Positions 3,289 through 39,118 of a stretch of DNA of 64,000 nucleotides are shown here, one piece after another. The notes below the pieces were generated by a model. It ran no database searches and was not told the origin of the DNA. It saw only the letters and a program-made list of their open reading frames with translations. The stretch's first letter is position 1. Every line of letters begins with the position of its first letter. The position numbers and the translations under genes are program-made. The stretch comes from a virus (taxonomy: Duplodnaviria > Caudoviricetes), in the IMG/VR virus record IMGVR_UViG_3300020049_008034, positions 1 through 64,000 of that record; one strand, written 5' to 3'.

Positions 3289-3325
3289 TTCATCCGGGAA
3301 TTTTTCAACCTTTCAATCTAATAAA

Positions 3326-3901
3326 ATGAGAACTGAACAGATTAATATCTATCAATTTTCAGAACTTTCTGAAAAAGCCAAACAAAACGCAATCGAAAAA
3401 CGTCGCTACTGGAATGTGAAACACAATTGGTGGAGCTTCATTTATGACCAGTTCAAAGAAGAACATCCACAATATGAAGATTGTGAAATTTCGTTTTCTG
3501 GTTTTTCTTCTCAAGGTGATGGAGCTAGTTTTACATTTAGGATCGACAGCGCGTATTTTGAAAAGTGGGTAAACGAATTGACTATTATTCCAGAATGGAA
3601 GAAAGCTATTTTAGTTCACTATACGCCACAATTTTACGGAAAGCGCAATAGTTTGCCATACGTACACAAAAGAAGCGTTACAATCGAATTCGACAGCGAA
3701 GAACACCATTACCCAAACATTGATGAGTTTAAAGAACAAATGTATGCTAACTTTTTGGCTTTTCTTCGCTCTGAATATTATACCCACTGCGATGAACTTT
3801 ACCGGACGCTTGAAGAGGAGTATGATTTTAGGACTTCTGATAAATACATAATTGAGAGGATGACAGATTGTGAGTTTTACGAGAATGGCGAAACTTATTA
3901 G
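3326..3901 (+). CDS. Conserved-looking phage early protein
   Basis: Start moved to MRTEQ; YQFSELSEKAKQNAIE N-terminus and acidic C-terminus. Confidence 0.75.
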   Translation: MRTEQINIYQFSELSEKAKQNAIEKRRYWNVKHNWWSFIYDQFKEEHPQYEDCEISFSGFSSQGDGASFTFRIDSAYFEKWVNELTIIPEWKKAILVHYTPQFYGKRNSLPYVHKRSVTIEFDSEEHHYPNIDEFKEQMYANFLAFLRSEYYTHCDELYRTLEEEYDFRTSDKYIIERMTDCEFYENGETY

Positions 3902-3922
3902 GGATTTGGGCCGTTTTGGCCC

Positions 3923-3975
3923 TTCCGTCGCGTTATGTGTGTAACGCCTGAAGAGTCGAAAACGACGAAACGGAA
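3923..3975 (+). ncRNA. Type III hammerhead ribozyme 1
   Basis: TTCCG-TC / GCGTTAT-GTGT-GTAACGC / CTGAAGA / GTCG-AAAA-CGAC / GAAA / CGGAA: full core and three stems; GUC cleavage after 3929. Confidence 0.93.
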
Positions 3976-3994
3976 AACTTTAAATTAACACAAC

Positions 3995-4159
3995 ATGACA
4001 CTTTTTGAACAATTTCATAAAAAAATAGCAGATTGTGCAACATTGCACGACCTTGAGCTAATAAAAGAAGAGGTTAAATCTGCTTTTGATGCTGACAGCG
4101 ACGAAAGGCTTGAACTTCTTGGGTTTGCTGGGATGGTGGAGGATTATTTAACATTCTAA
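3995..4159 (+). CDS. Small hypothetical protein (54 aa)
   Basis: Manual translation MTLFEQFHKKIADC...DYLTF; A-rich start context after the hammerhead. Confidence 0.6.
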   Translation: MTLFEQFHKKIADCATLHDLELIKEEVKSAFDADSDERLELLGFAGMVEDYLTF

Positions 4160-12477: not shown

Positions 12478-12530
12478 TTGCATATATCCCGGATGATTCC
12501 ATACATTTGCAAAACGGGAATTCATCCGGG
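12478..12530 (+). promoter_or_regulatory. Promoter with two inverted motif copies (operator-like)
   Basis: TTG (12478), N21 containing CCCGGATGA, TACATTTG (12502-12509), TTCATCCGGG at 12521. Confidence 0.7.
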
Positions 12531-12546: not shown

Positions 12547-12759
12547 ATGACTGACAAGCAATTTCAAAAACTAATCGATAGGTGTGTCAAGGCAGCTAAA
12601 TTGCACCACGCGCTCCTACAAGATGCTGAGGCAGAATACGAGCGTCGGTTTGGGTTCAACCCGTCTGACGTAGATGATGACTTTTGGATTGATTCTTTAC
12701 ATCACGGAGTTGAGGTTACGGTTGCGCAAATTACCGAGAACGCTGAGTTTCATGGTTAA
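12547..12759 (+). CDS. Hypothetical protein
   Basis: ORF track; stop followed by the variant TTCATCTGGG. Confidence 0.75.
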   Translation: MTDKQFQKLIDRCVKAAKLHHALLQDAEAEYERRFGFNPSDVDDDFWIDSLHHGVEVTVAQITENAEFHG

Positions 12760-14647: not shown

Positions 14648-14678
14648 TTGCATGATTGAATTGGAGTGTTTATATTTG
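14648..14678 (+). promoter_or_regulatory. Promoter upstream of the ncRNA island
   Basis: TTG (14648), N20, TATATTTG (14671-14678). Confidence 0.7.
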
Positions 14679-14849
14679 TGTTCGTTATATTGAAGCGCAC
14701 AAGCTTAAACCAAAATCCACGACCATGTAGTTTTTAAAAATAAACTGAAGTACTCTAGGAGTTAGTAGGTTTACAGACTGACCAATAAGGGGAAAAAACG
14801 ATTTTTATTATCATCCGGGCTTTAAATACGATTAGACCCCGGATGAACC

Positions 14850-14952
14850 AAGAGATCAGATAGCGAGCTGGCCCGCATGGGTGATCAATAAACGGTGCAA
14901 ACAAGAGTCTAACTCCCGAAGCTGTAAGCGATTTGCCTGATCTCTTTTTTTT
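14850..14952 (+). ncRNA. Structured RNA A, family unknown
   Basis: Closed by the perfect 10-bp pair AAGAGATCAG/CTGATCTCTT, followed by a T run. Confidence 0.5.
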
Positions 14953-15018
14953 ACGACTCTGGAGCAGAAGGAGTCGCCCGGATGAATACCCTCTAAGCTT
15001 TTGTGGCGGCGAGGTGAC

Positions 15019-15090
15019 TTTGCAGTAGTTTAGTGGCGAAAATACTCTGCGTGTAGCGGGGCGACGTCGGTTCGAATCCGGCCTGTAAAG
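15019..15090 (+). tRNA. Non-canonical tRNA, nominal anticodon TGT (Thr) with G33
   Basis: TTTGCAG/CTGTAAA acceptor, GTTT/AAAT D stem, CTCTG-CGTGTAG-CGGGG anticodon arm, GTCGG-TTCGAAT-CCGGC T arm, followed by G-CAA. Confidence 0.7.
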
Positions 15091-15095
15091 CAAAC

Positions 15096-15181
15096 TTGAT
15101 AGGTAGAGGGCAGATGGCTTAGCCCGACCGCTACGTGAAAGTCGTAACGGAAACTTGCGGGTTCGAATCCCGTCTATCGAG
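15096..15181 (+). tRNA. tRNA-like RNA with atypical anticodon arm
   Basis: TTGATAG/CTATCGA acceptor, GGGC/GCCC D stem, GCGGG-TTCGAAT-CCCGT T arm; 8-bp arm CCG-C-TACG-[TGAAAGT]-CGTA-A-CGG. Confidence 0.55.
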
Positions 15182-15275
15182 CGCAGTCGACAACGCCTGT
15201 TTAGCGTCCTCTTGCGCGAAAACAGTAACCTAAAACGCCAATGCGCGTAAAGAGAGTGACTCCGATACAATCGGA
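15182..15275 (+). ncRNA. Structured RNA C (possible pseudoknot plus hairpin)
   Basis: CTCTTGCGCG/CGCGTAAAGAG stem; loop AAACAG complementary to upstream CTGTTT; TCCGAT-ACA-ATCGGA hairpin. Confidence 0.4.
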
Positions 15276-15284
15276 TCATCCGGG

Positions 15285-15377
15285 CGGCTAAAGCAAGCTC
15301 AGTAAAAGCCTTGCAAGGGGAGGATGCAGTACTCGGTGCTGTGTAGGGTTCGACGCCCTCCCTAGCTTAGCTTAGAG
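15285..15377 (+). ncRNA. Degenerate tRNA-like RNA D
   Basis: AGGG-TTCGACG-CCCT T arm, GCT-CAGTAAA-AGC D-like arm, 7-bp variable-like arm GCAGTAC/GTGCTGT, weak acceptor stem. Confidence 0.4.
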
Positions 15378-15390
15378 CCCGGATGAACAC

Positions 15391-15464
15391 AGCGGAGTAG
15401 CGCAGTTGGTTAGCGCGGGAGGCTCATAACCTCTAGGTCGTCGGTTCAAATCCGGCCTCCGCAA
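15391..15464 (+). tRNA. tRNA-Met (CAT), initiator-like 1:72 mismatch
   Basis: AGCGGAG/CTCCGCA acceptor, GCGC/GCGC D stem, GGAGG-CTCATAA-CCTCT, GTCGG-TTCAAAT-CCGGC; ends A-CAA with no encoded CCA. Confidence 0.92.
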
Positions 15465-15477
15465 CAATTCATCCGGG

Positions 15478-15539
15478 CGGTTAAAGAAAGTTCTGGAACG
15501 CCGAATCAGGAATAAGGTGACGGTATCCCACCTCCTGAG
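15478..15539 (+). ncRNA. Structured RNA E
   Basis: TCAGG-(AATA)-AGGTG / CACCT-CCTGA bulged stem, closed by inverted motif copies. Confidence 0.4.
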
Positions 15540-15580
15540 CCCGGATGAAAAAAACATTTTGTTTATTCAAAAATTGTTTT

Positions 15581-15588
15581 TATCTTTG
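15581..15588 (+). promoter_or_regulatory. Promoter -7 element for the antirepressor gene
   Basis: TATCTTTG followed by CAGTGC, same context as the 11295 promoter. Confidence 0.65.
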
Positions 15589-15628
15589 CAGTGCTTTCAC
15601 ACAGCGTCTAGGTAAAAACAAACAAGCC

Positions 15629-15694
15629 AAAGGCTTGGCAATGAAGAGGGGGTATTACCTGCCCGTGTGAACTCTGATTTGCCAAGCCTTTTTT
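15629..15694 (+). terminator. Leader hairpin with U tract before the antirepressor
   Basis: AAAGGCTTGGCAA...TTGCCAAGCCTTT followed by T run. Confidence 0.55.
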
Positions 15695-15701
15695 AATTGT
15701 A

Positions 15702-23402: not shown

Positions 23403-23626
23403 TGGGAGTCAAGTATCATCTTTTATCTGAAAAAGCCAAGGTATATAAAAAGCTACCTAAAAATGCTACTGAACCAGTTCTTGAGACAGAAGAAACAATC
23501 GAGTACCATGTTTTCCCGTGGTACTATATCGAGCGCAAAGAAGCTGTTAACAAGTGTTCCTTTTGCGGCAAACCCAAATACAACCCCTGCATCCATCAGT
23601 CACAAGTAAAATACTGTAAGCGATGA
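23402..23626 (+). CDS. Small protein with Cys-rich C-terminus
   Basis: CSFCGK...C. Confidence 0.65.
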   Translation: MGVKYHLLSEKAKVYKKLPKNATEPVLETEETIEYHVFPWYYIERKEAVNKCSFCGKPKYNPCIHQSQVKYCKR

Positions 23627-24504
23627 TCTACACCTCAACTGCACCCATCGCTAAAGGGTTATTAAATGAGCTCCGTACTAAATTTCACCAAGAGGTGAAG
23701 TACGGAGCTTTATTTGATATTTTTATGTTCTGCGGCCCTCGGGCGAATGAGGTTTTAAAACTACAAGTCGCCCACGTTGCAACCCCTTTAAGCAAAATTG
23801 ACTGGGAATACGTGGACGGGACGTGCCGGTGGGGGGAGACGAAAAAAGGATTTAAGTACGAATACCAGATTCGTGACAACATTCTTTTCTATACAACAAA
23901 GCAAGACCGTAACGGAAGGCGAACAAAGCGCACTCCGCCTATCAATCCTCTTCTTAAGGCATCTTTAGGGAAATATTTAGACGGAAGTATCTTGAACCCG
24001 GATGATCTTCTTTTCCCCGGAAACAGCGGTAAAATGCTTAGCTATGAAGCCATTAACCGAAGATTGGAAAAATACTGCGCTGAGCTACGCATCGACGAAA
24101 CCGTTTTGGGTGGTCAAATTGGGTTTCACATGATTAGGAAGGCTTTTGCCGTTGCACTTTTTCAACACTTCGGTGGAGGGCTTCTGGCTGCAATTAAAGT
24201 TCAAAAGGAATTTGGTCACAAAAACCTACTTACAACCTATCGGTATTTAGGTGTTAGGTTAGACGAGGACGTCCACGATGCCATCCGGACTGGAGAAATG
24301 TACAACGTTACTCTTGTAGACCGCATACAAGGTCGTGAAGCAGCTTTAGTAGGTTGGCAGAATCTTTATACTATATTTGAAAATTCTGGCGTCCTAGACT
24401 TGCAAATGACCAACTGGCTTCGTACCTTTACATCGGACGAAAAAGACATCGACCGCACTTTGCAGTGGATGAAATCTCATAACCAAAAAATTGATTTTTT
24501 ATGA
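23623..24504 (+). CDS. Tyrosine recombinase (XerC/D-like)
   Basis: Catalytic R (GPRANE), HxxR (HMIRK), H (GHKN) and Y (TYRY). Confidence 0.9.
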   Translation: MIYTSTAPIAKGLLNELRTKFHQEVKYGALFDIFMFCGPRANEVLKLQVAHVATPLSKIDWEYVDGTCRWGETKKGFKYEYQIRDNILFYTTKQDRNGRRTKRTPPINPLLKASLGKYLDGSILNPDDLLFPGNSGKMLSYEAINRRLEKYCAELRIDETVLGGQIGFHMIRKAFAVALFQHFGGGLLAAIKVQKEFGHKNLLTTYRYLGVRLDEDVHDAIRTGEMYNVTLVDRIQGREAALVGWQNLYTIFENSGVLDLQMTNWLRTFTSDEKDIDRTLQWMKSHNQKIDFL

Positions 24505-33199: not shown

Positions 33200-36100
33200 T
33201 TATTTCTTAAGAAATTGCGGTTCTTTTATCTCTCCAGTCTGGATTGCTTTGACCGTAACGGCGTCTAGTCGCAAATCCTTAAGTGCTTCATCTATTTTCT
33301 TTTTGTCGACTCCTGGGAACTCGATAGCTGCCATATATATTTCATGGAAATCCATGACAAACTTAGAGTAGTCCTTCATTTCTCTTTCTTTTACTTTAGC
33401 AAGGTGTTCTTTACGGTCCTTTTCGGGTAAGGCTTTGACCTGCTCTTTATTTTTCTCCACCCCGTAATCTGCCTTTGAATCATTTATTTTATCGGCCATA
33501 TTCCGACCCAGAAATCCAAACGACCGATGAATGTCCACGTTATAAGATCTAAATCCAGGGAATATCGCAATACCCTCTTGTATTGGGTTTAATTTTCCGT
33601 AATAATCGGTTTCTGGTTCATTAAAAGACCTAAATACTCTCTCGAACGACTTCAGTGTGCCGGGAGTGAGCTTCTTCCCTACATGCTCCATCCGGGCTTT
33701 TAGCCAGTCTGTTTCACCGACTTGAGAAATTGGTCGCCCTGTTTTACCTAACTGCTGGCCATAGGTGGCTTCCAGCAACGATTTCATTAAAGGGTCGATA
33801 GTGTAAAATGGCTCAAAGAATTTCTCTGCTGCCCGACCCGCGTTTTCAGCAGGAGAGAAGCGCTCATCAGAAACCGTTGAAAGAGTAGATAAAATGTGCC
33901 CTTGAGGGAACATATAACCCCAGTCATAATAGTCAACAGAGCCTTTCTTTTCGTTCCATGGTGATGGGATTAAAAGAGATCCTTCATGGTAAAAAGGAAC
34001 GAAATATTTTAGTTTTTCATCGTCATCGTCAGCCCAGCCGAGCATATTTGTAATTAGCTCTTTTAAGAGAAATGGAGCAATGGACACAGCCATTGTGCCA
34101 GCCATCACCTTACCTAGCATCAAGTTCTTATAAGACATGTCCACCCCGGCTACCTTTACTTTCGTATCTTGGCCCATCTTCATATCCTGGACTAAATTAG
34201 CCATGATATTATAAGACACTCTAACCATCTCGTAAGGGAAGGATGGGAACGGAGCTACAAAAGGGTTGCGGCGGAGAGCCTTGATGTTCCTTGGGAGCCG
34301 AGAATAGGTTGGGTTTTCGCTTGAAACGCGCTCAGCGGCCAATTGTTTGACTTCTTGTTGCACATCTGGGCTTAAGGTGTCGTATTCAGCACCCTTGTAA
34401 AGCCGAGCCATCTTGTCTAGGTTCCGATAGTAGTCGATAGCCCGATAAAACTCATCGCCGAATTGGTAGATGTGAGACATAAACTGAGTTACCATTCGCC
34501 CCTTTTCGGCCAGCTTGCCTTGGGTGGTATTGTCGACTCCTGCGAACTTTCTAGCATACTGTTTTCTAACGTCAGCGATTTCTCCGAAAGTAATCCCATC
34601 TCCCAAAACCCCGAGTGAATACATTTCAACCAATTCGGCCTCATTATTGCCCTTAAATAAATCAAATGCCTTTTTTATATTAGGGTCGGCTACATTAAAC
34701 AAACCTTTTTGGGCTTGTAGTAATAAGTTTGAAGTAAAGTTTCTTGCGGCAGACGCAATAGAAAAAATAGTCATGAATGACTTTGCCCGAGACGTTATTC
34801 CGAGCATTGATTTGTAAACCAAGCCCATAACATCTCCTTCCTCGGTCATGTCGCCGATAGGTTTATTGTAAAGTCTAAAAGCCTCTACGATCTCAGGAGT
34901 AGAATAATATCCAGCCAATGGCCCCATTTGGGGAGTGTCAGGGAATTGTGTGGTGTAAGCCCCGGTTGGGCGTTCAAACAAAAACTTATCCCGCCCTTCG
35001 TCTTCGACCTTAGATAAGAACTTATTATTCTCTAAAATATGTGCTGTTTTAAAAATAGAAGTCATGTAGTTTACAATGGGGTCTTTGACCTCGCCAAAAA
35101 CATCACGGATTTCTTCGGCGATTTCTTTTCGCTTTTTAAATACCCCTAAATTCATAGAGCCCAACGACCCGCTCTTGGCTACGTCACCCAAAGAAAGTCC
35201 CTTGGCTTGTTTTTCCAAAATTGCATCAAGCTCAGCTTCTACGTCTCTACCGATACGTTTTTTCTGATTTTCAATTCTTTTCCCCCAATATTCAGGGTTA
35301 TTAGGAAGTTTTGCTTGGTATTTTGCAATTTTAGCCTGAGCGTCAACTTCTTCTTGGGCGAACTTTTTATCAAGAAAAGCCTTGGCCCGAGTGTAAACAG
35401 CGGTGTCCTTCACGTTCTTAACCCAGTTCTTATTGAAGTGAATCTGATAAGAACGGGTCAGGTAAGTATCAAGGTTTTTGGAGATAATCGCGGCGAGGTT
35501 TCCGTCAGCAATTCCTGTGTTAATTAACTCAGAAGACATTGAGGTTACGTGTTCGCGCATCTTACCAATTAGATCCAAAACTTCAGGCTCAATTGGCCGA
35601 CCATCGGAATAAGTAGTGGCAGTTGACTGTAAGGCGTAGTTTAAATCCTCAATCTGCTGAGGTGTTTTGCCTTTAATCAGCTTTTTGAGTTTATTAGCCG
35701 TCAGCTCAGATTGCTTCATCATCCCCTCGATCCGAGCTATTCTACGATAGTTGAGTTGAGCAACATCTAATGGAAGATCACCACGACCAAAGAAGGTGTA
35801 CTTCCATGCTTTTTTTAACCAACTCATTGCCCCTGATTTCGCTATTACTCCCCATACTTTGTCAGTGATGAAGCCCGGCTGAGCAGCAAAACTATTTACT
35901 TCTTCGATCAGAGGGAGAATGTTGGGTTTTGGACGATTTGGATTATTCGGGTTTGCTTCGGCAGGTTGTTGAGATGTCGCACTTATATCTGGTGTTGCGT
36001 ACTTCGCTCTAACTTCCTTTTGTCTCCTATCAAATTCAGCAAAATCCTCTTCAGTTACCTCGTCTTTACCTAACGCAGCAGCAACACGTCCTTCGGGGTC

Positions 36101-39100
36101 TACTCCTGAAACTCTACTTAAAAACGGAAGATCTTCTTCTGATACTCCTCTAGCTTTTAATTCGTCATAAACCTTTTGCTGATCTGCATAATTATCTCCG
36201 CCTTCTTCGTTTTCCATCCGGGCTTCAGCTCCAGCGGATGCCTCCTCCATGTCGGTTAGCGTGTCGGCCAGAGATAGGGTATCGGCGTTTTTCGTCCAGT
36301 CTTGATTACCCAAGCTAACCTCTTGAGGTTTTTCGGCGGAGGCACTCTCATCTGCCTGAATTTCAATCACATTCTCATATGGATCAGCAGCAACCTCCTC
36401 CAATGATCTTGAGTTGACAAACCCGACGGACGTCGGAGAGGTTATAGCTCTAGGTACTGGAGATGTTGGATATTTTTTCTCCAAACTAGATAAACTTGCG
36501 CTAGAATCTGTATCCGGCAAATTCACGGCTGTTTCAGCATAACCAGTGTCGGTTGATCTTTTATCTGAAAATTCAACTCTGGTGGGGATGGACTTTACGC
36601 CCAACTTCTTTGCCGCAGCTACTCTATGGTTCCCTTCGGTAATGACGGCTTTCTTGTCTTTAAATACAGTTAGTACAATTGGCTCTTTAATACCGCCGTC
36701 TTTAGTGATCTGATCCGCTAATTCGTCTACGTTTCCAGATGTTTTAGGGTCGACAGCCCTGTCTACTTCCACAAATTGAGATATGTCGTCAACCGGAACA
36801 TATTCAGGCTTACTGGATGGTCTCGTTATTTCTTTGTCTGCCAATATGGTTTCCGCGATACTCTTGCTGGCCGCAACAGATTCTTCGTATGTTCTTGGCG
36901 TAATCTCTTGAGGAGTTTCGGTCGGCAAGCTTCCATCTTGATTAACGGGTTCTTGCGCAGTCGCTTCTACTATTATTTCGGCGGGTAAATTTTCACCAGT
37001 TACAACATATTGATTAATAGGCTCTTGCGCAGATGTTTCTTGAGGGACTTCGGCGGATTCAGCAACAACTTCATCTGAAATCTCCTTCTCATTCTCCTTA
37101 AAAATCTCCACCTCCTTCGCCTCGGCTTGTTCTTTAAAAACCTTAGCCTGAGCGTCAGCACCAATGGCTTTGGCTTTTTCAGCTTTGTCTTTTAGATCGG
37201 TGAGCTCGTCGAGTTTTGGAATGTCTTCTTCCTTGACCTCTTTTATCTCGCTTAGCCCTTTAATTTTTAGGGCTTTGTTGTACATTTTTTCAACGTCAAC
37301 TTTTTTGCCATTAGCCACCTCGGCCTGCAAGGCTTTTTTGAACTCTTCAGGATTTTCAGCAGCCACCAGCCAAGCTGAATTCTTAAAATCACTCTCTCCT
37401 GCCCCCATTAACGCCCCAACAGCAAATGAAATTAACGCTGTCCCTTTCATCTCATTTAGATCGATGTCTTCAGCGTCGCCATTTAAAACCATGGCAGTAG
37501 CTCCTTCGATTGCTTTTTCAAGAATTGTTTCTTCAAACATCTCGCCTGACCCTTGTTTGAAAAAATTGGTAGCAGTTCTAGCGGCAGCGGCCTTTGGCGT
37601 AAGACCTTTTACGGCTTGGGTCATCGTGATGTTATCAAACACTCCCGGTCCTCCGGCGAGTCTTGCTTCAACTCCAAAAAGATTAGACCCCACCCCAATT
37701 GCTAGGCCGGTCATGGTAGCGTACTGAGCTGCCTTTCTCTTATCGCCATCAAACATCTTAAGACCTTGATCATATAAACCTCCAGCCATTTGACCCATCG
37801 TTGAAGCAGTGACCCCTGTGGCATAGGCAGCTTTCGCCCCCATACCTGTCTTAACTAAACTCCCACCTATGCCTTTTGTGGTGGCAATTTGCACCATGGC
37901 ATCGGCTAAAACCTCTCCGGTTTGATAAAACAAACCTTTGCCGTTGTATTGGTTTTTAGCTTCTAGTCCTTTAAATTGATTAGGATCGGCGTCAATAACA
38001 GAACCTTTACTATCTCTGACGACCGTGGGTTTGCCGTCTTGGAAATCTACTTCGACTTTTTCTCCGTTTAGAGTCGTCTTCGCGGTTTTAGTATAAAGGG
38101 GGCGAGTGTATTTAGTGGGCCGTGGAGCAACTTTGGCGGTTTGATCTTGGAAGTCGATAAAGAAATCTTCGATCTTATCCCAAGTCCCGTAGGTTTTATC
38201 TTCGGTTACAAGATTTTCTCCAATATTCATTACCTCTCCGATAGACCCAACCAGCTTGCCGGTTGCTCTTTGTAGGATTCCCAAAGTCAGATTACCCCAG
38301 CCTTCTGTTTCTGATTTCTTCTGCCTGTCAGCGTCGTATTTTTCTAATGCCCGAGCGTAGGCGTACTTGTCGTCTTTTAAGATCTGAGCGCCTGACTTCT
38401 GATTAGCCTCAAGTGCAGTGATAAACTTGTTTCGGTCGTTAATAAATTCGTCTTTCTCAAACTCCTCTTGGCGCTTGATGATCTCGTTCTTGTCGTACTT
38501 GTAATTTGGGTCTTCTAGGGCTTGTTGACGAGCGTAATATTCTTCCATCCAATTATCCCCCCACTTTTCTTTAATACGCGCCTCAGCAGCTTCTACAGCT
38601 CTCTGGAGATTCCCTGAGTCAGACTGAAGAGTATTCAACCGGGCTTCATATTCTTTTTCTGGAGCTATAATTGATCCTTGGACTTGTTGTTTAGTATAGT
38701 CGTCAAGATCAGCAGCTTTTTCAAAGTTAGGTCTTTGGCGGGCTTTTTGCAAAGCAAGTTCTTGTTCTGCTCGTTTAGATCCAGCAATAGCTTCCGGCGT
38801 CAGTGGTCCGGATGAACCAGTAAGTGATGTCCTTGTGGAAGGAGAAGCAAGTTTAGGTGTGCCAGAATCCCATGAATAGCTTGCGCCAGAACCCGATATT
38901 TGGCTGTTTGACTGCGCTTTTTTTTTACTTAAATCCTCGAACTTGGCATGAAAGCGAGTCAAGAATTCATCCGGATTGAGGTCCGAATAAGAGTCTTTAC
39001 GCAGCATCTCCATCGTTTTGAGATACTGCCCATTGTCGATATATTTTGCTTGAATTTCTGCGTCGGTTAACTTTGGATTATAGTTGCGTGCGAATCCAAA

Positions 39101-39118
39101 AATTGGATGTTCTTCCAT
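33200..39118 (-). CDS. Giant internal virion / ejection-type protein (1972 aa) with ParB-like domain
   Basis: Size and position after two small pilot-like genes; ParB/Srx-like segment LADQITKDGGIKEPIVL...ITEGNHRVAAAKKLG near 36570-36740. Confidence 0.65.
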   Translation of the reverse strand: MEEHPIFGFARNYNPKLTDAEIQAKYIDNGQYLKTMEMLRKDSYSDLNPDEFLTRFHAKFEDLSKKKAQSNSQISGSGASYSWDSGTPKLASPSTRTSLTGSSGPLTPEAIAGSKRAEQELALQKARQRPNFEKAADLDDYTKQQVQGSIIAPEKEYEARLNTLQSDSGNLQRAVEAAEARIKEKWGDNWMEEYYARQQALEDPNYKYDKNEIIKRQEEFEKDEFINDRNKFITALEANQKSGAQILKDDKYAYARALEKYDADRQKKSETEGWGNLTLGILQRATGKLVGSIGEVMNIGENLVTEDKTYGTWDKIEDFFIDFQDQTAKVAPRPTKYTRPLYTKTAKTTLNGEKVEVDFQDGKPTVVRDSKGSVIDADPNQFKGLEAKNQYNGKGLFYQTGEVLADAMVQIATTKGIGGSLVKTGMGAKAAYATGVTASTMGQMAGGLYDQGLKMFDGDKRKAAQYATMTGLAIGVGSNLFGVEARLAGGPGVFDNITMTQAVKGLTPKAAAARTATNFFKQGSGEMFEETILEKAIEGATAMVLNGDAEDIDLNEMKGTALISFAVGALMGAGESDFKNSAWLVAAENPEEFKKALQAEVANGKKVDVEKMYNKALKIKGLSEIKEVKEEDIPKLDELTDLKDKAEKAKAIGADAQAKVFKEQAEAKEVEIFKENEKEISDEVVAESAEVPQETSAQEPINQYVVTGENLPAEIIVEATAQEPVNQDGSLPTETPQEITPRTYEESVAASKSIAETILADKEITRPSSKPEYVPVDDISQFVEVDRAVDPKTSGNVDELADQITKDGGIKEPIVLTVFKDKKAVITEGNHRVAAAKKLGVKSIPTRVEFSDKRSTDTGYAETAVNLPDTDSSASLSSLEKKYPTSPVPRAITSPTSVGFVNSRSLEEVAADPYENVIEIQADESASAEKPQEVSLGNQDWTKNADTLSLADTLTDMEEASAGAEARMENEEGGDNYADQQKVYDELKARGVSEEDLPFLSRVSGVDPEGRVAAALGKDEVTEEDFAEFDRRQKEVRAKYATPDISATSQQPAEANPNNPNRPKPNILPLIEEVNSFAAQPGFITDKVWGVIAKSGAMSWLKKAWKYTFFGRGDLPLDVAQLNYRRIARIEGMMKQSELTANKLKKLIKGKTPQQIEDLNYALQSTATTYSDGRPIEPEVLDLIGKMREHVTSMSSELINTGIADGNLAAIISKNLDTYLTRSYQIHFNKNWVKNVKDTAVYTRAKAFLDKKFAQEEVDAQAKIAKYQAKLPNNPEYWGKRIENQKKRIGRDVEAELDAILEKQAKGLSLGDVAKSGSLGSMNLGVFKKRKEIAEEIRDVFGEVKDPIVNYMTSIFKTAHILENNKFLSKVEDEGRDKFLFERPTGAYTTQFPDTPQMGPLAGYYSTPEIVEAFRLYNKPIGDMTEEGDVMGLVYKSMLGITSRAKSFMTIFSIASAARNFTSNLLLQAQKGLFNVADPNIKKAFDLFKGNNEAELVEMYSLGVLGDGITFGEIADVRKQYARKFAGVDNTTQGKLAEKGRMVTQFMSHIYQFGDEFYRAIDYYRNLDKMARLYKGAEYDTLSPDVQQEVKQLAAERVSSENPTYSRLPRNIKALRRNPFVAPFPSFPYEMVRVSYNIMANLVQDMKMGQDTKVKVAGVDMSYKNLMLGKVMAGTMAVSIAPFLLKELITNMLGWADDDDEKLKYFVPFYHEGSLLIPSPWNEKKGSVDYYDWGYMFPQGHILSTLSTVSDERFSPAENAGRAAEKFFEPFYTIDPLMKSLLEATYGQQLGKTGRPISQVGETDWLKARMEHVGKKLTPGTLKSFERVFRSFNEPETDYYGKLNPIQEGIAIFPGFRSYNVDIHRSFGFLGRNMADKINDSKADYGVEKNKEQVKALPEKDRKEHLAKVKEREMKDYSKFVMDFHEIYMAAIEFPGVDKKKIDEALKDLRLDAVTVKAIQTGEIKEPQFLKK

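Follow-up and report, generated by a model that had tools for sequence, protein, structure and literature searches.

The window examined here comprises the first 64,000 nucleotides of the linear 77,548-bp record of an uncultivated virus (IMG/VR record IMGVR_UViG_3300020049_008034; Duplodnaviria, Caudoviricetes), which is 48% complete according to CheckV, and it encodes phage replication and virion genes. Between positions 14648 and 15697 lies an island of RNA genes in which inverted copies of a short word, (T)TCATCCGGG(C), close a series of small units, and comparison with related phages indicates that these word-closed units are conserved blocks of such islands. The island has a definite anatomy, its word and units are conserved, its relatives are mosaics and homology between them breaks at the word; the stems that the word pairs would form are stable by prediction. 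The word pairs are tentatively regarded here as stems that would space or bracket the members of a polycistronic precursor of transfer RNAs (tRNAs) and small RNAs, and that would also act as recombination junctions. This reading ranks first among those considered, at a likelihood somewhat short of probable.

The exact word TCATCCGGG occurs in the island at 14811(+), 14838(-), 14977(-), 15276(+), 15378(-), 15469(+) and 15540(-). An initial annotation, prepared from the sequence alone, had reported seven copies within 740 bp, and an exact-match search recovered all of them, the position given as 15468 being corrected to 15469. Such a local excess was reached by 0.8% of random placements (P about 0.008) at the genome-wide rate of 1.05/kb. 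The list of exact copies also bears out a strict alternation of orientation from 14977 onward and the complementarity of neighbouring copies, so that pairing is possible in both registers, i.e., + then - and - then +. Other elements of that description were found again: the first pair (14811/14838) forms a hairpin of its own (H1; energies are given in Table 1), pairing continues 1-3 bp beyond the octamer around units D and E to give 10 and 11 bp, respectively, an upstream promoter at 14648 (14648-14678) fits the Bacteroidota-type pattern TTG-N20-TAnnTTTG, and the enclosed RNAs (two tRNA-like RNAs, RNA C, D, tRNA-Met and E) were located by tRNA and Rfam searches and by folding. The pair 15276/15378 encloses the 93-nt insert of unit D and the pair 15469/15540 the 62-nt insert of unit E, and the sequences on either side of tRNA-Met are perfectly complementary over 11 bp (15377-15387 with 15467-15478, -22.3 kcal/mol).

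A DnaB-type helicase gene lies 2.7 kb downstream of the island, and the relatives used for comparison are contigs of its metagenomic homologues (93-47% identity), with three more obtained through a 21-nt pattern from the tRNA-like RNA TL; together these are eight metagenomic phages (loci are labelled in the series L001-L009, L131 and L133, and the window genome is G000 or W). In all nine phages (the window plus eight), a gene-free stretch of approx. 0.6-1.3 kb occupies the same place, and the same promoter heads it wherever the contig of the relative extends far enough. The islands draw on common modules in shuffled arrangement (H1, leader K, TL, RNA C and RNA S), and their ordinary tRNAs vary by phage (Leu, Leu, His, Ala; Met; Trp; Pro; His). 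Variation in cassettes among relatives, where the initial annotation had proposed looking for gain, loss or inversion, can be seen in the shuffled modules, in the absence of module X from L008, where H1 adjoins K, and in the different contexts of units E and Y. Its notion of a modular RNA-cassette array stands insofar as the islands are promoter-headed series of protein-free modules that vary among relatives and are bounded by the word; the resemblance that it drew to bacterial interspersed mosaic elements (BIMEs) does not.

When one mismatch per arm was allowed, 17 (+)-then-(-) units were counted in the first seven islands, with inserts of 16-93 nt; the stems closed by word pairs measure 9-15 bp, and every (+) copy of those islands is paired in the order + then -. 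Unit E is identical at 79 of 80 nt in the window, L007 and L131, its homology running from TCATCC to GGAT between unrelated flanks, and unit Y stands after two tRNA-Leu genes in L001 and after RNA C in L009, its arms again marking the limits of homology. The insert that follows RNA C differs among phages (93, 61, 35, 23, 23 or 16 nt), with unrelated sequence between the same arms. Of 250 ends of BLAST homology blocks, 76 fell at most 6 nt from the word versus 28 +/- 5 expected (maximum of 2000 permutations, 45), i.e., breaks in homology at the word have 2.7 times their expected frequency, an enrichment that is partly inflated because alignments extend into the conserved word and then stop.

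Density and order were counted from exact copies in the nine islands, copies within 110 nt being taken as adjacent. The word reaches 4.05/kb in the islands and 1.19/kb outside; adjacent copies run + then - in 15 cases inside and eight outside, and - then + in one case inside and seven outside, and no direct adjacent copies occur in either compartment. Genome-wide (G000, L001-L009, L131 and L133), direct pairs account for none of the 31 adjacent pairs within 110 nt, and pairs 110-200 nt apart are mixed (ten direct, six inverted). Several + then - pairs, genic as well as insular, cluster at 62-70 nt from start to start.

If the word pairs act at the RNA level, the stretch 14648-15697 would be transcribed from host-type promoters as one precursor containing one ordinary tRNA (Met), tRNA-like RNAs that would not decode and the small structured RNAs C, D, E and S. 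Inverted word pairs would then form stems of 9-15 bp between the RNA genes of the + strand precursor, closing small inserts in the hairpin register (+ then -) and enclosing tRNA-Met or the tRNA-like group in the bracket register (- then +). Such stems may separate the folding domains of the precursor and may present host RNase P, RNase Z and probably RNase III with defined substrates, and cleavage would leave stem-closed small RNAs such as E; processing of RNA at the word stems is, on these models, plausible. The shared word of 9-11 nt could in addition supply the micro-homology for exchange of modules between related phages, which would yield the cassette-like mosaic.

A role in RNA is suggested by features of both sequence and predicted folds, i.e., the + then - order relative to transcription, the extension of the H1 stem to 15 bp, a single arm change with full compensation in the H1 of L001 (CATCCTGG/CCAGGATG), the excess of G-U pairs (seven G-U pairs versus three A-C mismatches when H1 is read on the + strand across islands) and the inserts predicted to be structured, two of which are conserved. 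Each unit alone is predicted to fold as a hairpin. For the complete transcript, the minimum-energy structure by prediction pairs 14977 with 15277 and 15378 with 15470, leaving 15540 free, and this fold brackets the tRNA-like group and tRNA-Met. The initial annotation had spoken of mutually exclusive folds, which appears a fair description, because the registers are nearly isoenergetic and the predicted folds switch between hairpin and bracket. During transcription, the window would be biased towards the bracket register by its additional (-) copy at 14977, and relatives without this copy would form hairpins.

Several observations weigh against an RNA role and have to be set beside it. The exact word is kept in 28 of the 34 arms of the 17 units, and the six deviating units comprise one that is compensated, one with a G-U pair on the + strand, two with A-C on the + strand and two mismatched on either strand. 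Because the arms retain their sequence and not just their pairing, selection, as far as can be judged from them, acts mainly on the word itself. Close inverted pairs are also found within genes, such as the primase gene of the window and of L005. Moreover, 60 of the 81 copies of the word in the record (74%) lie within genes, in all six frames, and for this reason the word has a function independent of the island; it is no island-specific signal but a lineage-wide word that is mostly genic, and its genome-wide occurrence was not mentioned in the initial annotation. An inverted pair (- then +, 35 nt apart) furthermore surrounds a promoter -7 box (TAcaTTTG/TAccTTTG; Table 1), stems of 9-11 bp are short for RNase III, and the inflation of the breakpoint enrichment noted above belongs here too.

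The best surviving alternative, unlikely on balance and still to be taken seriously, is that a DNA-binding protein specific to the lineage recognises the word as an asymmetric site, in the manner of an operator or stoperator, and that the island copies control P1, P2 and read-through in this way, the RNA stems being incidental. Arms that are conserved in sequence and do not covary, and a word enriched in both orientations and within genes, would fit such a site, as would the 12488/12523 inverted pair around the TAcaTTTG -7 box, which recurs in L003 and L133 (both orders). In several phages, the 3' arm of the last unit lies approx. 10-15 nt upstream of the -33 element of P2, and the 13 early copies (2-7.6 kb), all sense and ten of them intergenic, recall the orientation rule of stoperators (PMC9283540). 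However, no binder was found; copies that pair stand anywhere from 16 to 93 nt apart, the inserts between them show conservation of their own in E and Y and are structured by prediction, and, in contrast to stoperators, three quarters of the sites fall in coding sequence. The 70-aa open reading frame (ORF) behind the sandwiched promoter, 12547-12759, was considered as the word binder and rejected, since it matched no protein family, DNA-binding or other. A methyltransferase was likewise rejected as reader of the word, such genes being present in some relatives and absent from the G000 fragment; N6/N4- or C5-type methyltransferase genes stand just after the island in L008 (approx. 3316-4110) and L131 (975-2156) and elsewhere in L005 (16674-17363).

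Less probable again would be selection for copy number only, as for the DNA uptake sequences (DUS) of Neisseria, in which case any process acting on DNA could read the word, with inverted pairs as the cheapest placement in a stretch free of protein coding and hairpins without a role. Word positions turn over quickly within orthologous genes (the helicase gene has 0-3 copies, at differing places among relatives), and the density of the word is 3-4 times higher in non-coding than in coding DNA, both of which such selection could produce; DUS, too, occur approx. once per kb, in genes and as close inverted pairs (PMC2397512). Placement by economy is nevertheless hard to reconcile with the + then - order (15:1 in islands vs. 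8:7 outside), with an orthologous H1 whose stem is extended to 15 bp, with a unit E that is near-invariant in phages whose proteins have diverged to 48% identity or, since DUS pairs differ in this respect, with the lack of a following U-run in most units.

It is very doubtful that the units are small mobile cassettes, resembling miniature inverted-repeat transposable elements (MITEs) or integron attC sites, that are moved by a phage enzyme such as the tyrosine recombinase encoded at 23623-24504. The constant outside-in polarity of the arms, the differing flanks of E and Y, the direct (-) word copies that flank module X in the window (14838 and 14977), the absence of close direct repeats (0/31 adjacent pairs within 110 nt) and the retention of a Phage_integrase-family gene in W, L003, L004 and L005 are all compatible with mobility. 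Nonetheless, neither target-site duplications nor, by self-hits, a genome with several identical copies of a unit were found, and the 77.5-kb fragment has no Y1 transposase. Integrons place IntI beside attI and Pc and end each cassette in an attC; here, the recombinase-family gene lies 8 kb downstream and does not adjoin the array, and the arms form a single perfect box of 9-11 bp, not the two-box attC architecture with extrahelical, bulged bases; nor can all genic copies of the word be active recombination sites. The recombinase-family protein in question (23623-24504, +, 293 aa) is part of the replication module of W, L003, L004 and L005; its catalytic-domain match starts at residue 14, the usual N-terminal domain is lacking, and a search by sequence against solved structures (PDB) gave no match. 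Likewise very improbable is a joint reading, in which the word would be the site of a lineage-specific recombinase or nucleic-acid-binding factor that reads it as a duplex (double-stranded DNA, or a duplex rebuilt by folded single-stranded DNA or RNA), the island would be an integron-like, promoter-proximal array and cassettes (tRNAs, tRNA-like RNAs, E) would be captured or shuffled at folded pairs.

Among known systems, the island comes closest to the tRNA and stable-RNA cluster of phage T4, and the word to DUS inverted pairs, stoperators or Correia elements. The T4 cluster is protein-free and promoter-driven, includes the small stable RNAs C and D, and yields precursors that are matured by host enzymes. 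It is comparable in that tRNA genes without protein genes are clustered after a promoter and alternate with small structured RNAs, a layout shared here by eight relatives; there is no sequence relation, however, and T4 has no repeated word closing stems between genes, whereas the present island holds tRNA-like RNAs predicted to be non-decoding and belongs to a phage of a probable Bacteroidota host. Correia (nemis) elements of Neisseria are MITEs with 26-bp ends and TA duplications, present in hundreds of near-identical copies, and RNase III cleaves their inverted ends, which fold once transcribed. Small inverted-end cassettes and hairpins as possible processing sites are common to both, as co-transcription with neighbours would be, but the arms in the island are 9-11 nt, duplications are lacking and the inserts are mutually unrelated, each occurring once per genome.

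Repetitive extragenic palindromic (REP) elements are imperfect palindromes of 20-40 nt that are strictly extragenic and linked to REP-associated tyrosine transposases (RAYTs). A repeated element that alternates in orientation in non-coding, presumably transcribed DNA is reminiscent of REPs and BIMEs, but the resemblance to BIMEs proposed at the outset fails: the word is 8-11 nt long and non-palindromic, 60 of 81 copies are coding, and PF01797 (Y1 transposase) has no match in the 77.5 kb, an incomplete genome. A second likeness of the initial annotation, that to RNase III stems around rRNA, where leader and trailer of a mature RNA join in a long stem cut by RNase III, is an analogy only; here an 11-bp perfect stem can bracket tRNA-Met and, in the predicted fold, 14977/15277 can bracket the tRNA-like group. 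The 77.5-kb fragment (incomplete genome) shows no RNase III of its own, nor any match to a methyltransferase, a Ro/TROVE protein or a Y1 transposase.

DUS are chromosomal words tied to competence, and their inverted pairs are rho-independent terminators (PMC2397512). The DUS and uptake signal sequences (USS) of Neisseriaceae and Pasteurellaceae share with the present word a short asymmetric form, a density of approx. 1/kb, both orientations, genic and intergenic locations and close inverted pairs, often intergenic, that form hairpins; in contrast, the word here is that of a phage lineage and shows no enrichment in 406 Bacteroidota genomes, and most of its pairs have no U-run. The stoperators of Cluster A mycobacteriophages are 13-mers with >20 copies, mostly intergenic, and their repressor is known (PMC9283540). 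Asymmetric short sites across a phage genome, a presence in early intergenic spaces and at promoters, and an orientation that partly tracks transcription are points in common, whereas the 81 copies here belong to an 8-11-mer, are 74% coding and show opposite orientation biases in early and later genes. A single orientation of the stoperator type holds at 2-7.6 kb (13/13 sense) and fails in the rest of the genome.

Table 1. Features of the RNA-gene island and associated elements (positions refer to the window unless a relative is named)
Feature	Coordinates	Strand	Basis and remarks
Promoter P1, Bacteroidota type (TTG, 20 nt, TAtaTTTG)	14648..14678	+	pattern scan; same promoter heads island in relatives
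Leader block kept in some relatives	14711..14775	+	77-85% identical in L003, L009; present in L131 too
H1, word pair (+ then -), 18-nt loop	14811..14846	+	predicted -18.4 kcal/mol, z -5.5; orthologous hairpin in six islands, stem up to 15 bp
Module X, structured, 10-bp closing stem then U8, terminator-like	14850..14952	+	fold
Lone (-) word copy ahead of leader K	14976..14985	-	aligns to same L008 copy as 14838
Leader K, always ahead of tRNA-like genes	14989..15018	+	83-94% identical blocks in L003, L007, L008
tRNA-like gene, called Thr(UGU), weak, aberrant anticodon loop	15019..15091	+	ARAGORN and Rfam, 41.4 bits
TL, conserved tRNA-like RNA	15093..15181	+	90-99% identical in six islands; consensus cloverleaf, 2 compensated pairs
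RNA C, conserved structured RNA	15181..15275	+	five homologues; 8 pairs with compensatory changes
Unit D, word pair around 93-nt structured insert with T-arm-like hairpin	15276..15386	+	predicted -49.9 kcal/mol, z -3.7
tRNA-Met (CAU), CCA not encoded	15391..15465	+	63.7 bits
Unit E, word pair around 62-nt insert	15468..15549	+	z -4.7; 79/80 nt identical in L007, L131
Promoter P2, Bacteroidota type	15559..15588	+	pattern scan; kept in L001, L005, L007, L009, L133
RNA S, conserved structured RNA, intrinsic terminator	15596..15697	+	five homologues; 9 pairs with compensatory changes; stem and U-run
175-nt RNA of relatives	L001 5848-6025; L003 2085-2265; L005 2465-2643; L008 2857-3036; L009 3309-3490; L131 355-536		
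Word-sandwiched -7 box	window 12488-12530; L003 416-458; L133 1103-1145		L001: upstream arm only

Some parts of the island deserve comment beyond the coordinates in Table 1. The Thr(UGU)-like gene is predicted to fold with a 6-bp stem and a 5-nt anticodon loop, and TL is predicted to combine D and T arms with an acceptor stem of 8 bp and an anticodon arm that is elongated and carries the loop UGAAAGU; ARAGORN made no call on TL, and Rfam gave only 19 bits, to the tRNA-Sec model. As modelled, the anticodon arms of the island tRNA-like RNAs cannot decode. The 3' end of RNA C is a (+) word copy in every case. RNA S lies directly upstream of a Rha/Ant gene (15702) and is preceded by P2, its own promoter, and it may be a leader or attenuator. 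The 5' end of RNA S pairs over a long range with a downstream segment, and the pairing covaries between relatives (UCACAC/GUGUGA, UCGCAC/GUGCGA, UCGAAC/GUUCGA). No U-run follows H1, D or E, and in relatives a few last units are followed by U-rich tracts.

Located between TL and a tRNA in six relatives, and lacking in the window, is a structured RNA of approx. 175 nt that is conserved among them; it has a 9-bp closing stem, six compensated pairs and no Rfam match. In L005 (2287-2465) and L009 (3054-3215), tRNA-like genes are apparently split by inserts of approx. 100 nt in the anticodon region; their 5' and 3' halves resemble the 'Thr' gene of the window, and they receive no ARAGORN call. Modules X, C, D, E and S and the 175-nt RNA have no counterpart among Rfam families, and weak Rfam matches to YrlA, trpB and Phe-leader were discarded as chance or terminator-only. 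A Y-RNA-like reading of units D and Y was also dropped, no Ro/TROVE partner being found in the 77.5-kb fragment. Minus-strand ORFs that overlap the island (14755-15279 and 15372-15557) were rejected as genes because they match no protein family and overlap RNA genes that are shuffled among relatives.

The 8-mer form of the word, CATCCGGG, is the commonest 8-mer of the record (81 copies, 1.05/kb), and it also ranks first in the relatives of useful length, i.e., L001, L003, L004, L005, L131 and L133 (1.0-1.7/kb), including L131, the helicase of which is only 48% identical. Of the 60 coding copies, 26 give xPD[EDG] on the coding strand, which is the commonest reading. Between 2056 and 7565, all 13 copies are in sense orientation, ten of them intergenic, and the opposite orientation prevails in later genes; several of the 2056-7565 copies continue as a mini-hairpin of 4 bp, GGGC-NNN-GCCC, in which GGGC is part of the word. 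Replication direction was not adopted as the cause of this orientation, because in later genes the bias tracks the coding frame that is easiest for the word, xPD[EDG], and upstream of the island there is little bias in relatives; the flips at 14.8 and 26.5 kb would also need very unequal replichores. L001 alone has a second enriched 8-mer family, CTCGGGTG / TCGGGTGT, with 14 copies.

In five named Bacteroidota genomes, TCATCCGGG has 2-43 copies per genome, and TTCATCCGGGC has at most 22 copies per genome in 401 Bacteroidota genomes chosen phylum-wide, compared with 14 in the 77.5 kb of the phage record and phage densities of 0.18-0.72/kb. No enrichment of the word was found in these 406 genomes, a sample outside which the true host may lie, and a host-word reading (Chi- or uptake-like) is ruled out for the genomes searched. 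A literature search for the word sequence returned primers and ETS sites only.

The host is most likely a member of Bacteroidota, to judge from sequence comparison, because the terminase matches phages of Flavobacteriia only (24% identity in a protein search) and the Bacteroidota promoter pattern is enriched, TTG-N18-20-TAnnTTTG occurring 27 times in the genome versus 3.4 +/- 1.8 in shuffles (approx. 8-fold). Protein searches with terminase and primase gave matches of 24-35% only, mostly to phages of Flavobacteriia and Porphyromonas. No close relatives were found in the phage collection, where matches were at the level of tRNAs or the Rha domain only; IMG/VR scans with the helicase and three island patterns as queries gave no match, nor did the TL pattern against the genome collection. 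Elsewhere in the window, a virion-protein-like ORF of 1972 aa (33200-39118, -) contains a weak ParB N-terminal-like segment at residues approx. 770-855.

Phage tRNA clusters are usually read as codon-usage helpers, and the present island consists mostly of RNAs that, by their predicted folds, would be unable to decode. It is conserved across a deep phage lineage and is divided into exchangeable units by the genome-wide word of that lineage. Within this context, the tRNA-like RNAs and unit E are candidates to act on host RNA enzymes in Bacteroidota, either as decoys or as regulators. Should the word stems prove to direct the maturation of RNA or the exchange of modules, they would represent a novel means by which a virus arranges and evolves its non-coding RNA repertoire, and they would provide an experimental handle on an unexplained word that is found approx. 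once per kb.

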